From assembly GCF_003334335.1 (NCBI RefSeq), contig NZ_QOWQ01000012.1: 64,000 nucleotides of DNA; one strand, given 5' to 3'. Both the position numbers and the translations under genes were made by a program. Of this stretch, positions 20,077 through 47,192 are shown one piece after another. The stretch's first letter is position 1; every line of letters starts with the position of its first letter. A model generated the notes under the pieces. It did no database searches, had not been told where the DNA came from, and saw only the letters and a list, made by a program, of their open reading frames with translations. This DNA comes from Escherichia coli. GTDB taxonomy: Bacteria; Pseudomonadota; Gammaproteobacteria; Enterobacterales; Enterobacteriaceae.

Positions 20077-21441
20077 TTATGCCTGACGAATTGCCTGTTC
20101 TATCTCAAAGCGATTCGTCACTTTGCTGTCGATTTTCACATAAGCTGAATGTTCTTCTTCTGCAATCAACACTTCTTTGATGCCTTCAGTTTCTAGCAAA
20201 CGCACTTTTAACGCCTCGTTTGCGGCAATGTTCGCCGGGATTTCAATGCGCAAACTGCTGACATACGGCGGTTCTTTCATGGTACTGGCGACTGTCAGCC
20301 ACACTGCGGCCAGCATTGCGCCAGCGAGAAATACCCCCTGACCGTCAAACATGCCGTTAATCCAGCCGCCCAGCGAACCGCCAATCGCCACGCCAAGAAA
20401 CTGGCTGGTGGAGTAAACACCCATCGCCGTACCTTTGTAACCTGCTGGCGACTCTTTACTGATAAGTGAGGGCAGGAGGGCTTCCATCAAATTAAACGCC
20501 ACAAAGAAAAGCTGCACGCCGACCACCAGTTGCCAGAACTGCGTTTGCGCGTTCCACAACACAATTTCCGCAACCACGATCAACCCGACGCAGAAGACAA
20601 AGACTTGCTTCATTTTGCGCTTAACTTCAGCGTAGATAATGAAAGGCACGACCGAGCCAAAGGCGATTAGCATTGTCGCCAGATAGACCTTCCAGTGTTC
20701 AGCCGCCGGGAACCCTGCATCAGCCAGTTGTCCGGGCAGGGCAACAAACGTCGACATCAGCAAAATATGCAGACACATAATGCCAAAGTTGAGTTTCAGC
20801 AGCCGCGGTTCCGCCAGCACTTTACTGAAACTGCCTTTCACCATTCCGGACTCACGATTAAGTACGTGAGTGCTACTGTTGGGCACAACCCAAATGGTCA
20901 ACGCAATGCCGGTCGTTGCCAGAATAGCGATCATCCAGAACAGCGCGTGCAGCCCAAGTTTGTGAGTGATGATCGGGCCAAGCACCATCGCAATGGCAAA
21001 GGTAATGCCAAAGCTCACGCCGATAAACGCCATCGCTTTGGTGCGGTTTTGTTCGCGCGTGAGATCGGAAAGCAGCGCCATAACGGCGGCGGCAATTGCT
21101 CCAGAGCCTTGTAGCGCCCGGCCCAGAATAATTCCCCAGATGGAGTCGGAAAGCGCAGCGATAACGCTACCGGCGGCAAACACCGCCAGCCCACCGACAA
21201 TTAATGGTTTGCGACCAATGCGGTCGGAAAGCAGGCCAAACGGAATCTGAAAAACGGCCTGAGTCAGACCATAAATACCAATGGCAATACCGATTAATGC
21301 TTCGCTGGCACCTTGCAGAGCCATGCCGTACGTGGTCAGAACCGGCAGAACCATAAACATGCCCAGCATGCGCAACGAGAATACGGTCCCTAAACCCCAG
21401 GTCGCGCGCCTCTCACCTGGCGTCATTTTATAATCGTTCAT
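20077..21441 (-). CDS. yajR: MFS transporter YajR
   Basis: Internal ATG gives 454 aa starting MNDYKMTPGERRATWGLGTVF; 12 predicted TM helices plus a C-terminal soluble domain. Confidence 0.92.
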   Translation of the reverse strand: MNDYKMTPGERRATWGLGTVFSLRMLGMFMVLPVLTTYGMALQGASEALIGIAIGIYGLTQAVFQIPFGLLSDRIGRKPLIVGGLAVFAAGSVIAALSDSIWGIILGRALQGSGAIAAAVMALLSDLTREQNRTKAMAFIGVSFGITFAIAMVLGPIITHKLGLHALFWMIAILATTGIALTIWVVPNSSTHVLNRESGMVKGSFSKVLAEPRLLKLNFGIMCLHILLMSTFVALPGQLADAGFPAAEHWKVYLATMLIAFGSVVPFIIYAEVKRKMKQVFVFCVGLIVVAEIVLWNAQTQFWQLVVGVQLFFVAFNLMEALLPSLISKESPAGYKGTAMGVYSTSQFLGVAIGGSLGGWINGMFDGQGVFLAGAMLAAVWLTVASTMKEPPYVSSLRIEIPANIAANEALKVRLLETEGIKEVLIAEEEHSAYVKIDSKVTNRFEIEQAIRQA

Positions 21442-36689: not shown

Positions 36690-39142
<2,453 letters not shown>

Positions 39143-39176
39143 TGTACTTATAACAACAACGTAAGGTTATTGCGCT

Positions 39177-39575
39177 ATGCAAACACAAATCAAAGTTCGT
39201 GGATATCATCTCGACGTTTACCAGCACGTCAACAACGCCCGCTACCTTGAATTTCTCGAAGAAGCCCGCTGGGATGGGTTGGAAAATAGCGACAGTTTTC
39301 AGTGGATGACGGCCCATAACATCGCCTTCGTCGTGGTCAATATCAATATTAACTATCGTCGCCCAGCGGTATTAAGTGACCTGTTAACTATTACCAGTCA
39401 GTTGCAGCAATTAAACGGTAAAAGCGGCATCTTAAGCCAGGTCATTACACTGGAGCCGGAAGGGCAGGTGGTAGCGGATGCGCTTATTACGTTTGTTTGT
39501 ATTGATCTTAAAACGCAGAAAGCATTAGCTCTGGAAGGGGAATTGCGCGAAAAGCTGGAGCAGATGGTTAAGTAA
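39177..39575 (+). CDS. fadM: long-chain acyl-CoA thioesterase III
   Basis: 132 aa hotdog-fold thioesterase; sequence recognised (MQTQIKVRGYHLDVYQHVNNARYLEF). Confidence 0.94.
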   Translation: MQTQIKVRGYHLDVYQHVNNARYLEFLEEARWDGLENSDSFQWMTAHNIAFVVVNININYRRPAVLSDLLTITSQLQQLNGKSGILSQVITLEPEGQVVADALITFVCIDLKTQKALALEGELREKLEQMVK

Positions 39576-39588
39576 ACGTTTTGTGGTG

Positions 39589-39612
39589 CCGGATGCTCAA
39601 GCCGCATCCGGC
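39589..39612. repeat. REP-like hairpin at the fadM/queC convergent junction
   Basis: GCCGGATGC-tcaagcc-GCATCCGGC, carrying the REP core GCCGGATG; likely also acts as a terminator. Confidence 0.7.
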
Positions 39613-39626
39613 GACACCCGGAATAA

Positions 39627-40322
39627 TTACCTCAACCCGGTTTTCTGCTTCATCGCTGCCATCACCGTCGGTTTATCGGCCAGATAATGATTCAAACCGT
39701 TGGCGCGTAAATTACATGCCGCACAATGACCGCAACCGTCGCCTTTAAAGCCGTTATAGCAGGTCAACGTTTCGTTACGGACTAAATCCAGTTTGCCGTA
39801 ATAATCTGCCAGCGCCCAGGTTTCCGCTTTATCAATCCACATCAGCGGCGTTTCAAAACGAATATCTTTCGCCATGCCCAAACTGACGGCATGGTTTAGT
39901 GCTTTCACAAACTCATCGCGGCAATCCGGGTAGCCGGAGAAATCCGTTTCGCAGACGCCAGTAATTACGGCTTCTGCTTTTACCTGATACGCATATATTG
40001 CCGCCAGCGTCAGGAACAAAATATTACGCCCTGGGACAAACGTATTCGGGATACCATCGGCTTCAGGTTCATAATCAGGCACCGGAATGCTGTCACGCGT
40101 CAGGCTACTGACCGCCAGCTCGTTGAGCAGGGTGACATCCAGCACCTTATGCGCGCGTGCCCCCAGTTTCAGCGCCAGTTCGCGTGCCACGTCGATTTCT
40201 GCGCGATGCCGCTGACCGTAATCGAACGTCACGCAATGGACTTCATCATATTGTTGTAATGCCTGCACCAGACAGGTGGTGGAATCCTGACCTCCACTGA
40301 ACACAACGACAGCACGTTTCAT
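39627..40322 (-). CDS. queC: 7-cyano-7-deazaguanine synthase
   Basis: 231 aa; PP-loop SGGQDS; C-terminal zinc-binding Cys cluster [16 protein letters not shown]. Confidence 0.96.
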
Positions 40323-40386
40323 AGATAATCCTGCTTGAACAATAAAAGCGTTATGGTAACGCCTGCGATTAACCCGGACCAGCTAT

Positions 40387-42087
40387 TCATTGCGATGGCG
40401 CGGGAAGCCAGGCTTCGGTAAATTCAAACCAGCCGCGCGGTGTCAGTCGCACACCGTTCACGCCGGGAGGGGCACTAATGCGATAGTGATAGTTGAACAG
40501 CGGCGTCAGCGTCGCATCTGTCATTAACTGGCTAAAAACCGCTTTCAGGGCATTAAATCGGTTTTCTTCATCAGGCATTATTTGCACGGCATCCAGTGTC
40601 GATTGTAGATGTGCGTATGCTGGAGCGTCGAAAACATGTGGCCACAGCGGATCGCAGCGCAGCCATTGCTCCAGAGTATATTCCGGTGCTTCGCCAATTA
40701 ATCTGTCGCCCATCATGAGGTCTGCGTGTGCCTGTAGGGTCGTGTCGTCCCAGTTTTTTGCGTTATGAAAAATAATTGTGAGTTCACAGCCTTCCGCTGC
40801 CAGTGTCGCCTGTAGGCGTTCTGCCATGGTATGAAGTTCTATCGGTAGGTGATAAACCAGCGTCAAGGTTTTCGGTAGTTTGACTTCATCCGGTACCTGC
40901 CAATGCGGAATAGTCCAGCCTGGCAGTAATGCATGACTGGCGGTGATCAGGTTTTCTCCGACTTCTAACGTTTGTAATAAACCGGATTGATGAATAATGG
41001 AGATCACTTTTCGCGCCTGCCAGAGGGAGAGTCGGGGACTTTTGCGCAACGTCAAATAGCAAAAACCTAAACTGATGCCGCTACTGACCTGGCTGACCCG
41101 TTGCAGCTCCTCCGGTTTGCCGATGGTGATTTGCACGGGATGCCGACAACTGGTTCCCAAATCTTTTTCGAAAAGCGGCGGAGTTATCCAGTACTCAACC
41201 GCTTTAAGCAGCGGATGACGTAAATGGTAATAATCATGGCTTTCCAGGCGCACCAGCTCTGCTGTGAATTGTGTTAAGCGAAAAGGACCCGTGCCGATCA
41301 GTGGGAATTGCGGATGCGCCAGATGGCTGCAATAGCTCGCCAGCCGGTGCGCAAGCCAGTAATCAGGGCGATGTAAAAAGAAGGTCAGACACTGCGGATG
41401 GGTGACTTCAATACGCTTCACGCTAATAAATAATTGATCCAGTGCTGGCAGTTGTAACAGCATCAATAATCGCTGGTGTAAGTGTGAGGCTTTTACTGCA
41501 TCGCCGTTATGCCAGTGTAGGGTTGAACGAAGATAAAAGTCCCAGCGTAACCCGTCAGTAGAGGTTTCCCAGTGATGCGCTAAATCGCCAATCGGGCGCT
41601 GAGTATTATTATCGAAGCGGGTCAGGCCGGAAAATATCTGCCCGGCGAGATGCTGCTCGGCACGGCCGGGCAAAAAGCCTGGTTGTAGCGGTTCGAGCGG
41701 GCGATAGTAGGGAATACGCAACGTGGGTGTATCGTTTTGCCATTGTCCGCCCATAAACGGCTGTAACAGAGTGCGCAGCTCACCTGGGGCCAGTTGCGCC
41801 AGCTCCAGCACATCTTGCTGCTTTCCGGTTTCCAGTGCCTGTTCCATCATCGCATTGCGTAGCGATTCCGGCGTGACCAGAAAGCGTAATTGTCCGCGCT
41901 TTCCGCGTCCTGACTGCGCCTGCCACTCCAGCCATCCCGCCTCCTGTGCCTGACGCAACAGCGTACGAACATGGCGTTCGCTGCAAAAACAGCGTTCGGC
42001 CAGTTCGCTGACGGTGACGGTTTGCGGCTTTCCGGCGGAAGGTTGCCACAGACGTTGATACTGGTTAAGACGGTTGAGCAATCGCAT
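40387..42087 (-). CDS. ybaE: SgrR-like protein: N-terminal winged-helix DNA-binding region fused to a solute-binding-protein family 5-like domain; function unknown
   Basis: 566 aa from the ATG at 42085-42087 (start choice between nearby ATGs uncertain); no signal peptide; N-terminus reads like the SgrR N-terminal domain as I recall it. Confidence 0.85.
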   Translation of the reverse strand: MRLLNRLNQYQRLWQPSAGKPQTVTVSELAERCFCSERHVRTLLRQAQEAGWLEWQAQSGRGKRGQLRFLVTPESLRNAMMEQALETGKQQDVLELAQLAPGELRTLLQPFMGGQWQNDTPTLRIPYYRPLEPLQPGFLPGRAEQHLAGQIFSGLTRFDNNTQRPIGDLAHHWETSTDGLRWDFYLRSTLHWHNGDAVKASHLHQRLLMLLQLPALDQLFISVKRIEVTHPQCLTFFLHRPDYWLAHRLASYCSHLAHPQFPLIGTGPFRLTQFTAELVRLESHDYYHLRHPLLKAVEYWITPPLFEKDLGTSCRHPVQITIGKPEELQRVSQVSSGISLGFCYLTLRKSPRLSLWQARKVISIIHQSGLLQTLEVGENLITASHALLPGWTIPHWQVPDEVKLPKTLTLVYHLPIELHTMAERLQATLAAEGCELTIIFHNAKNWDDTTLQAHADLMMGDRLIGEAPEYTLEQWLRCDPLWPHVFDAPAYAHLQSTLDAVQIMPDEENRFNALKAVFSQLMTDATLTPLFNYHYRISAPPGVNGVRLTPRGWFEFTEAWLPAPSQ

Positions 42088-42186
42088 ATAAACCCGGAAC
42101 AATATTATTTAACTATTCACTATTACTTCCGTATATATCAGGTGATACTCAATCACCATTAACCGTGTCACAGAGTGGAGAAAGAA

Positions 42187-43005
42187 ATGGCTCGTCTGGC
42201 AGCATTTGATATGGATGGCACTTTATTGATGCCTGACCATCATTTAGGTGAGAAAACCCTCTCTACTTTGGCGCGACTGCGTGAACGCGACATTACCCTC
42301 ACTTTTGCCACGGGGCGTCATGCGCTGGAGATGCAGCATATTCTCGGGGCGCTATCGCTGGATGCGTATTTGATTACCGGCAACGGAACGCGCGTGCATT
42401 CTCTGGAAGGTGAACTTTTACATCGTGATGATTTACCTGCGGATGTCGCGGAGCTGGTGCTGTATCAGCAATGGGATACCCGAGCCAGCATGCATATCTT
42501 CAATGACGACGGTTGGTTTACCGGGAAAGAGATCCCTGCGTTGTTGCAGGCATTTGTCTATAGCGGTTTTCGTTATCAGATAATCGATGTCAAAAAAATG
42601 CCACTCGGCAGCGTCACCAAGATCTGCTTCTGTGGCGATCACGACGATCTTACACGCTTGCAGATCCAGCTATACGAAGCATTAGGCGAGCGTGCACATT
42701 TGTGTTTTTCCGCCACGGATTGCCTCGAAGTGCTGCCGGTGGGCTGCAATAAAGGCGCTGCATTGACGGTGCTGACCCAACATTTAGGTTTATCGTTGCG
42801 CGATTGCATGGCCTTTGGTGATGCGATGAACGATCGCGAAATGTTAGTCAGCGTCGGTAGCGGATTTATTATGGGCAATGCGATGCCGCAACTGCGCGCG
42901 GAGCTCCCGCATTTACCGGTGATTGGACATTGCCGAAATCAGGCTGTCTCTCACTATTTGACGCACTGGCTGGACTATCCACATCTACCTTATTCCCCCG
43001 AATAA
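42187..43005 (+). CDS. cof: HAD-family phosphatase (HMP-PP phosphatase Cof)
   Basis: Internal ATG at 42187 gives 272 aa starting [14 protein letters not shown]; HAD motif I DMDGT and C-terminal GDAMND. Confidence 0.93.
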
Positions 43006-43020
43006 CGAGATCCCTTCCAG

Positions 43021-43046
43021 CACCGGGCAATTGCCCGGTTTTTTTT
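43021..43046 (+). terminator. intrinsic terminator of cof
   Basis: Perfect palindrome CCGGGCaattGCCCGG followed by eight T residues. Confidence 0.85.
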
Positions 43047-43157
43047 GCGTTGAATTTGTCATTTTGTGCCGTGGTGTTTAAACCGCACAGAATAAATTGT
43101 CGTGATTTCACCTTTAAAATAAAATTAAAAGAGAAAAAAATTCTCTGTGGAAGGGCT

Positions 43158-43616
43158 ATGTTAGATAAAATTGACCGTAAGCTGCTGGCCTTACTGCAGC
43201 AGGATTGCACCCTCTCTTTGCAGGCACTGGCTGAAGCCGTTAATCTGACAACCACCCCTTGCTGGAAGCGCCTGAAACGGCTGGAGGACGACGGTATCCT
43301 TATCGGCAAAGTCGCCCTGCTGGATCCGGAAAAAATAGGCCTCGGCCTGACCGCTTTTGTGCTGATAAAAACGCAACATCACAGCAGCGAATGGTATTGC
43401 CGCTTTGTCACGGTGGTTACCGAAATGCCAGAAGTGCTGGGGTTCTGGCGCATGGCTGGTGAATACGATTATCTGATGCGCGTCCAGGTTGCCGACATGA
43501 AACGCTACGACGAGTTTTATAAGCGTCTGGTAAACAGCGTGCCGGGGCTGTCGGACGTCACTTCCAGCTTCGCGATGGAACAGATTAAATACACCACTTC
43601 TTTACCCATCGAATAA
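43158..43616 (+). CDS. decR: Lrp/AsnC-family transcriptional regulator
   Basis: Internal ATG at 43158 gives 152 aa starting [28 protein letters not shown]; RBS GGAAGGG upstream; formerly ybaO. Confidence 0.92.
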
Positions 43617-43645
43617 ATATCCAGAATCAGGTCAGGACACAACGC

Positions 43646-47192
<3,547 letters not shown>

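Follow-up and report, generated by a model that had tools for sequence, protein, structure and literature searches.

The ybaE gene of Escherichia coli encodes a regulator of the SgrR family and is transcribed divergently from the phosphatase gene cof; both genes lie within the 64,000-nt stretch of DNA analysed here (contig NZ_QOWQ01000012.1, hereafter the window). The spacer between them contains a conserved block of about 60 bp, which carries an inverted repeat and a putative cof promoter. The analysis shows the domain architecture and cytoplasmic location of YbaE and the conservation and layout of the block; we infer DNA binding, the direction of regulation and a ligand. YbaE is likely to regulate cof, and the best explanation, in which we have moderate confidence, is that it binds the block and activates cof in response to a ligand.

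The ybaE coding sequence (40387..42087, minus strand; 566 aa plus stop) is supported by the list of open reading frames (ORFs), the RefSeq coordinates and product name, Pfam matches and a BLASTP alignment with SgrR. The mechanical ORF (40387..42102, minus strand) opens at a TTG five codons upstream of the RefSeq start. The RefSeq start, the ATG at 42087, gives the N-terminus MRLLNRL, which is conserved in all orthologues. The spacer occupies 42088..42186 and is followed by the cof ATG at 42187, so that positions 40387-42186 comprise the ybaE coding sequence and the entire spacer. The initial annotation of this range had described ybaE as divergent from cof across a 99-bp intergenic region; the spacer is exactly 99 bp long, and the peptides quoted in that annotation (TVSELAERCFCSERHVRTLLRQAQEAGWLEW...GRGKRGQLRFL) are recovered in the ybaE translation. 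The predicted target gene, cof (42187..43005, plus strand), encodes the hydroxymethylpyrimidine pyrophosphate (HMP-PP) phosphatase, a Cof-type HAD-IIB hydrolase. It scores 554 bits against a cut-off of 336 for the NCBIfam equivalog NF011705, and the next-best named family is YigL with 222 bits.

The conservation of the spacer was studied in 74 related loci, taken from one genome per species, 64 of which have a full-length YbaE orthologue. All 64 full-length loci, a set that reaches from Escherichia as far as Erwinia and Winslowiella (56% protein identity), preserve the divergent orientation of ybaE and cof, and so does a relative with 46% identity. Most of the 64 loci have a spacer of 97-105 bp. 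When 50 distinct spacers were aligned, a block of about 60 bp emerged, with 42 positions conserved in at least 90% of sequences and the consensus ..AAACCCGGAACA.T.......A..TATTCA.TATTA.TTCCGTATAT..CA....ATACT. In 49 other species the block (42090-42149 in the window) is 75-100% identical to that of E. coli. Outside Escherichia its identity is 75-90% while the fourfold-degenerate sites of ybaE and cof are saturated, with fractional identity to E. coli of 0.33-0.54; the non-coding block is under strong purifying selection.

Enlarged spacers of 122-374 bp occur in Citrobacter, Yokenella, Trabulsiella and Intestinirhabdus, and the additional DNA is always found between the ybaE ATG and the CCGGAAC motif of the block. 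Between the block and ybaE there are anywhere from 3 to 280 nt, whereas the interval to cof is fixed; in most species with enlarged spacers, ATACT is 43 nt away from the cof ATG. The internal spacings of the block are fixed as well: CCGGAAC is followed by TTCCGTATAT at +33 nt and by ATACT at +51 nt. Since the enlargement falls on the ybaE side only, the block is anchored to cof, belongs to its promoter and is not conserved as a ribosome-binding site of ybaE. Exactly one box was found per locus (70 of 70); a search with an nhmmer profile of the block against 802 kb of sequence detected no second box in the window, and no further copy of the block was found in the window or its flanks.

In four Citrobacter loci (L007, L010, L018 and L048) the spacer grows to 217-374 bp through repeat-like insertions that have sequence in common, for example CACTTGCCGCCTCGATGC...TTGTGTAA, and lie about 100-280 bp upstream of the ybaE ATG. 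These insertions sit between the ybaE start and the block and leave the distance from the block to cof undisturbed.

The conserved block contains four recognisable elements. The left arm AAACCCGGAAC (42090..42100), the predicted YbaE half-site, is present in a single copy in the window; each of its positions is at least 90% conserved among the 50 spacers and most are invariant. The central conserved element TATTCACTATTAC (42114..42126) spans the expected -35 position and has no resemblance to a -35 hexamer. The right arm TTCCGTATAT (42127..42136), read with its preceding base, gives (C/G)TTCCG, the inverted partner of CGGAAC. It is followed by GATACT (42144..42149, plus strand), the putative -10 hexamer of cof, in which ATACT is invariant. 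The search for a conserved dyad in the spacer, suggested in the initial annotation, thus yields CGGAAC-N25-(C/G)TTCCG, formed by CGGAAC at 42095-42100 and (C/G)TTCCG at 42126-42131 with 25 nt between the arms. Both arms are almost invariant. Buttiauxella, Erwinia and related genera have the right arm GTTCCG and hence a perfect repeat; E. coli, with CTTCCG, matches at five of six positions.

GATACT has the A at position 2 and the T at position 6 that are expected of a -10 hexamer. The hexamer located 17 bp upstream of it, TATTAC, is unlike a -35 element, and a scan of the spacer with the promoter consensus found no sigma-70 consensus promoter. A -10 hexamer without a recognisable -35 is typical of activator-dependent promoters. 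The start of cof transcription is predicted at about 42155-42157. Although GGAAC is similar to the -35 element of sigma-E promoters, this interpretation was dropped, since no TCAAA- or TCTGA-like -10 lies at a suitable spacing. Downstream of cof, a strong hairpin (43022-43039) with a T-run resembles an intrinsic terminator (43022..43049, plus strand), which suggests that cof is a single-gene unit.

A perfect palindrome, GGTGAT-N5-ATCACC (42141-42157), overlaps the putative -10 and start of cof. Escherichia retains it, Citrobacter and Salmonella do so in part, and it is missing from Kluyvera, Buttiauxella and Erwinia; either chance or a second, lineage-specific operator could account for it.

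The YbaE protein has the architecture expected of a one-component regulator. The Pfam search proposed in the initial annotation found both anticipated domains, SgrR_N (PF12793; residues 7-119, E 5.3e-39, model positions 3-115 of 115) and SBP_bac_5 (PF00496; residues 165-303, E 1.3e-16). The SgrR_N domain is encoded at 41731..42069 (minus strand) and consists of a winged helix-turn-helix (residues 3-69) and a three-helix linker (73-111); the sensor domain, encoded at 40390..41730 (minus strand), covers residues from about 120 to 566 and forms a complete solute-binding fold of cluster C (family 5). An AlphaFold model of the full-length protein, built from an alignment of 70 family members, has a predicted local distance difference test score (pLDDT) of 91.9 and a predicted TM-score (pTM) of 0.88, and the N-terminal 118 residues modelled separately have a pLDDT of 86.5. 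Residues 3-69 of the model follow the order helix-strand-helix-helix-strand-strand of the winged-helix topology. In the family alignment C35, R38, W52, W55 and the G60-R61-G62 motif are invariant or nearly so. The SgrR-like winged helix and the family 5-like domain postulated earlier are therefore both borne out by domain matches and by the modelled folds.

Among solved structures, the nearest folds to the N-terminal domain alone are the winged helices of the MarR family, CodY and ROK proteins. Foldseek matched the sensor domain to NikA, DppA, the sialic-acid-binding protein SatA and CntA in the PDB (E 1e-28 to 1e-23), NikA and DppA being the best (E 1e-28), with target-normalised TM-scores of about 0.58-0.71, mostly 0.66-0.71. 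A sequence search of the PDB found no member of the SgrR family among solved structures. The resemblance to MarR proteins such as HcaR and MftR (E 4e-4 to 7e-3), the closest solved folds to the N-terminal domain, is in fold only, and Pfam gave no match of YbaE to MarR or MarR_2 up to an independent E of 10. MarR proteins are small dimers with the ligand site in the same domain and, unlike YbaE, have no solute-binding domain.

Judged from its sequence, YbaE is cytoplasmic and has no export signal, in agreement with the initial annotation. Its N-terminus is polar, with neither a signal peptide nor a lipobox nor a twin-arginine motif; the maximal Kyte-Doolittle mean over nine residues is 0.53 for windows starting at residues 1-60, and no membrane segment is present, the maximal 19-residue mean over the whole protein being 1.12. 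We describe YbaE as a one-component regulator in which a winged helix would bind DNA and a solute-binding-protein fold would sense a small molecule. The same design principle, a DNA-binding domain joined to a solute-binding fold that senses a cytoplasmic metabolite, is used by regulators of the LacI/GalR and LysR families, although in these both the class of binding-protein fold and the DNA-binding domain are different, and Pfam and NCBIfam scans detected no sequence relationship of YbaE to either family.

YbaE is colinear with SgrR over its full length, as the alignment called for in the initial annotation demonstrated: residues 9-565 align to residues 9-550 of K-12 SgrR with 27% identity (BLASTP, E 9e-55). 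The two proteins have in common the recognition-helix pattern CS.RH.RTLL and the wing GRGKR. YbaE scores 231.9 bits against the SgrR equivalog (NCBIfam NF010149), below the cut-off of 476 bits, and is hence a paralogue of SgrR rather than an orthologue. SgrR (E. coli b0069), which activates the small RNA gene sgrS in glucose-phosphate stress, has the same two-domain architecture and likewise a divergently transcribed neighbour, sgrS being a known target and cof a predicted one. The genomic contexts differ, however: sgrR is located in thiB-sgrR-sgrS-setA and ybaE between queC and cof, and the neighbour of sgrR is a small RNA gene (sgrS/sgrT) while cof encodes a protein. No Rfam match to a small RNA or riboswitch was found in 38500-43700, and the 99-bp spacer is too short for a small RNA gene.

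The assignment of YbaE to the SgrR family, with divergent genes as targets, is already known. In RefSeq the product is named SgrR family transcriptional regulator, a name that nearly all database relatives also bear. Horler and Vanderpool 2009 (PMC2760817) sorted the homologues of SgrR into seven main clades with YbaE as the type of Clade 2 and SgrR in Clade 1, examined the synteny of YbaE, and hypothesised by analogy with sgrR-sgrS that the divergent genes are targets of sgrR homologues. A transcriptome paper of 2018 reports upregulation of ybaE under carbon limitation and classes it as a regulator of unknown effector, and the remaining mentions in the literature are incidental hits in screens. 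Ligand and regulon had been called unknown in the initial annotation, and in the literature we found no paper defining a ligand, binding site or regulon of YbaE. What is added here is a testable prediction of the cof operator and promoter, a candidate half-site for the family, and the symmetry between SgrR/YigL and YbaE/Cof. YbaE belongs to those transcription factors of E. coli K-12 without known ligand, regulon or phenotype, and Cof has no known regulator; the predicted operator, if real, would offer a route to assigning both together and would be the first consensus operator for the SgrR family.

Members of the other SgrR clades (Clades 3-7 of Horler and Vanderpool 2009; here P0123, P0124, P0125, P0127 and P0130) combine SgrR_N and SBP_bac_5 as YbaE does and are 31-39% identical to it, but their neighbours are not cof. 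These distant genes adjoin oxidoreductases, a phosphotransferase system (PTS) permease, a TetR gene or chaperone-usher fimbrial operons. Since cof is not found beside them, the ybaE-cof module is specific to the YbaE clade. Ahead of their regulator genes, however, the other clades resemble ybaE: inverted repeats with a GGAA core occur there, their arms 22-25 nt apart. In the L080 locus, a paralogue 37% identical to YbaE is preceded by the inverted repeat TAAACAGGAACA/TGTTCCTGTTTA (L080:3902-3947), which matches at 12 of 12 positions with 22 nt between the arms. In the L084 locus (36% identity) the repeat AAAACCGGCAAT/ATTTCCGGTTTT (L084:3433-3480) matches at 11 of 12 positions with 24 nt between the arms. 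By our own estimate, the number of perfect 12-nt inverted repeats within 45 nt that chance would produce in 199 bp is about 5e-4. These repeats, with a GGAA or CCGG core, are candidate operators of their paralogues.

Two SgrR-family genes in tandem, encoding proteins of 558 and 554 aa with 31-34% identity to YbaE, were found at L082:3501-7295 and L085:1371-5165, the sources being a metagenome contig and also a Logan contig. The pair is situated between chaperone-usher fimbrial operons and beside a regulator of the GerE/LuxR type, a context unexpected for the SgrR family.

The left arms from different members of the family can be aligned: AAACCCGGAAC for YbaE, TAAACAGGAAC for the L080 paralogue and AAAACCGGAAAT for the L084 paralogue, and, on the SgrR side, AAAAGGGGAAC for E. 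coli SgrR and AAAAGAGGAAC for the Pantoea-type SgrR and a Rahnella paralogue. The flank of the half-site differs, being CCCGGAAC at YbaE and GGGGAAC at SgrR. Spacers of the SgrR type begin with AAAAG(G/A)GGAAC beside the regulator ATG, and in most YbaE loci the arm likewise adjoins the ATG. The sgrS and cof promoters are laid out alike: the regulator ATG is followed by an A-rich GGAAC, 26-27 nt, TTCC(C/G)TATAT, 7 nt and the -10 hexamer, and the distance from the regulator ATG to the transcription start, known for sgrS and predicted for cof, is about 68 nt in both. The sgrS promoter carries TTCCCTATAT in the register of the right arm of cof. Four SgrR-type spacers match 23-24 of the 42 conserved positions of the cof block in one register; dinucleotide shuffles given the same freedom match 16-18 on average, and 0-20 of 3000 reach the observed value. 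These comparisons point to AAAnnnGGAAC, inverted and about three turns apart, as a candidate half-site for the whole family.

Two further ideas about the operator were rejected. One was that the base beside GGAA covaries symmetrically, as G...C at E. coli sgrS, as A...T in Pantoea and as C...G at YbaE; it was discarded since TTCCT in Pantoea is shifted by 4 nt from the register of its E. coli counterpart. The other drew on the K-12 promoter of alaC, a known SgrR target (L077, about 20400-20445, minus strand). Its TTCCTCATTTAACGTCATTAAT agrees with the sgrS core promoter TTCCCTATATTAAGTCAATAAT at 16 of 22 positions, but the alaC promoter does not help to define the operator, having no upstream GGAAC at the matching spacing.

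In the mechanism proposed here, YbaE would bind 42090-42136 through two inverted CGGAA(C) half-sites spaced by about three helical turns. The ligand-bound protein would then activate the adjoining cof promoter, with its -10 hexamer GATACT and no -35 element, and would probably, like SgrR, act as a repressor of its own gene. The amount of Cof would rise as a result; this HAD-IIB phosphatase dephosphorylates HMP-PP and other phosphorylated metabolites.

Several points weigh against activation of cof by YbaE. The inverted repeat is imperfect in E. coli itself, in the 46%-identical relative the left arm has changed to CCTGAAC, and an inverted repeat with 6-bp arms within 60 bp is not rare by chance. 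The weight given to the repeat rests on the near invariance of its arms, the single box per locus, and the similar elements at independent paralogues. The resemblance between the sgrS and cof promoters was noticed before it was tested and is confined to register-matched positions. A Needleman-Wunsch alignment of the whole sgrR-sgrS and ybaE-cof spacers is no better than shuffles (z 0.2-0.8), and the profile of the cof block retrieves no sgrS promoter from the 802 kb of sequence. The resemblance is modest and consistent with a common layout rather than proven homology; we do not claim overall homology of the promoters, the whole-spacer alignment not being significant. YbaE is also not present as a factor studied by chromatin immunoprecipitation with exonuclease digestion (ChIP-exo) in the accessible part of the supplements of a 2021 survey.

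The right arm is placed between the -10 hexamer and the position of a -35, which would be compatible with a repressor as well. YbaE might thus be released by its ligand in the manner of MarR, shutting off cof and itself until an inducer arrives; we regard this as unlikely, even though its winged helix is closest in fold to those of MarR-family repressors. SgrR is said to repress its own gene, as Vanderpool and Gottesman reportedly described in 2007, and this too counts for repression. Low expression in standard cultures points the same way: in the accessible part of the 2021 supplements, the only entries for ybaE and cof are low read counts (baseMean 53 and 75). Repression, however, accords less readily with a cof promoter that has no recognisable -35 element and should be weak without an activator, and the homologous layout at sgrS belongs to an activated promoter (PMC4021124). 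It is quite improbable, in our view, that the block is a cof promoter owned by another transcription factor and that YbaE acts elsewhere, for example on the downstream queC or on distant genes. The gene queC does follow ybaE at 62-90 bp in nearly all loci, the adjacency of ybaE and cof could be mere conserved gene order of the core genome, and the weakness of the sgrS similarity in unbiased tests fits such an arrangement. Yet the ybaE-queC spacer has a distinct conserved block of its own without a box of the YbaE type, and in Erwinia persicina a displacement of queC by 3.4 kb leaves cof at about 100 bp from ybaE. The like GGAA-core dyads that independent paralogues bear beside their own genes also argue against another factor.

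An older annotation treats YbaE as the periplasmic substrate-binding protein of an ATP-binding cassette (ABC) transporter, and some database entries and papers still label it periplasmic. The NikA/DppA fold of its C-terminal 450 residues would agree with this. The lack of a signal peptide or hydrophobic segment and the presence of a 119-residue DNA-binding domain at the N-terminus contradict it, as does the gene neighbourhood: queC, cof, fadM and decR surround ybaE, and no ABC permease or ATPase gene adjoins it, here or in relatives. This reading is effectively refuted and retains hardly any probability.

The conserved block of the 64-bp ybaE-queC spacer (40323-40386, minus strand), present in about 55 species, consists of AAGCTGGTC right after the ybaE stop (about 40377-40385) and of TACCATA (40352-40358), which is invariant. 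Together the two look like a -35/-10 pair for queC. The block overlaps a weak hairpin (40346-40364) that is followed by a T-run; as a terminator this hairpin was rejected, its consensus having a fold energy of only -2 kcal/mol and six pairs, several of them broken, with compensatory changes at two of the six.

Activation of cof by YbaE, if it occurs, invites a comparison with the SgrR pathway. In glucose-phosphate stress, SgrS stabilises the mRNA of the HAD phosphatase YigL, which allows dephosphorylation and export of sugars (PMC4021124). Both regulators would be linked to a Cof-type HAD-IIB phosphatase, SgrR to YigL via SgrS and YbaE to Cof directly. Because paralogous regulators are linked to paralogous phosphatases, the analogy suggests that YbaE-Cof may relieve the build-up of some phosphate ester. 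We speculate further, as a tentative and rather doubtful extension, that YbaE and Cof constitute a second, protein-only circuit of phospho-metabolite stress parallel to SgrR-SgrS-YigL, with sensing, direct induction of Cof and an operator common to the family. YbaE would sense the accumulation of a phosphorylated or pyrophosphorylated metabolite, such as HMP-PP, the pyrophosphate derived from bacimethrin (a toxic HMP analogue), or a sugar or vitamin phosphate, and would induce the paralogous phosphatase Cof directly via two inverted AAAnnnGGAAC half-sites about three helical turns apart. The symmetry suggests more than one response for phosphate-ester detoxification in enteric bacteria, and an operator common to the whole SgrR family, if true, would make cross-talk with SgrR possible.

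The window is chromosomal DNA of E. coli, and its genes run in the order ppiD, ybaV, fadM, queC, ybaE, cof, decR, mdlA. A 2-kb region around ybaE matches 5425 of 5426 complete E. coli genomes, 5375 of them with at least 80% coverage, and ybaE is therefore a core gene of E. coli. In one strain (NZ_OW968288.1) it is split by an IS4-like ISVsa5 element, and apparently truncated or frameshifted copies occur in an E. coli strain, C. koseri NCTC10786, Enterobacter sp. EA-1, Kluyvera genomosp. 3 and Candidatus Pantoea persica (interrupted and truncated loci: NZ_OW968288.1, L020, L045, L060, L061 and L069). The gene seems to be dispensable in some lineages. A 444-aa form of YbaE without the N-terminal domain (P0023) is found on 21 contigs. 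A single Logan contig has an 818-aa gene call (P0002) that unites QueC, SgrR_N and SBP_bac_5, most likely a read-through or assembly artefact fusing ybaE and queC.

Two database contigs (the L075 / L067 pair) carry the locus under unexpected names: a 245-bp contig labelled Methylobacterium organophilum is 99% identical to E. coli ybaE, and one labelled Chryseobacterium sp. 18061 bears an enterobacterial cof-ybaE-queC locus. Contamination or mislabelling of the assemblies is the probable cause in both cases.

On the other side of cof, Salmonella enterica subsp. arizonae has a 351-aa gene for a pyridoxal phosphate (PLP) enzyme between cof and decR, convergent with cof (L037:1975-3030). The gene occupies the same position in Citrobacter, Enterobacter and related genera and is absent in Escherichia, where cof and decR are about 150 bp apart; it is probably the cysteine desulfhydrase gene cdsH.

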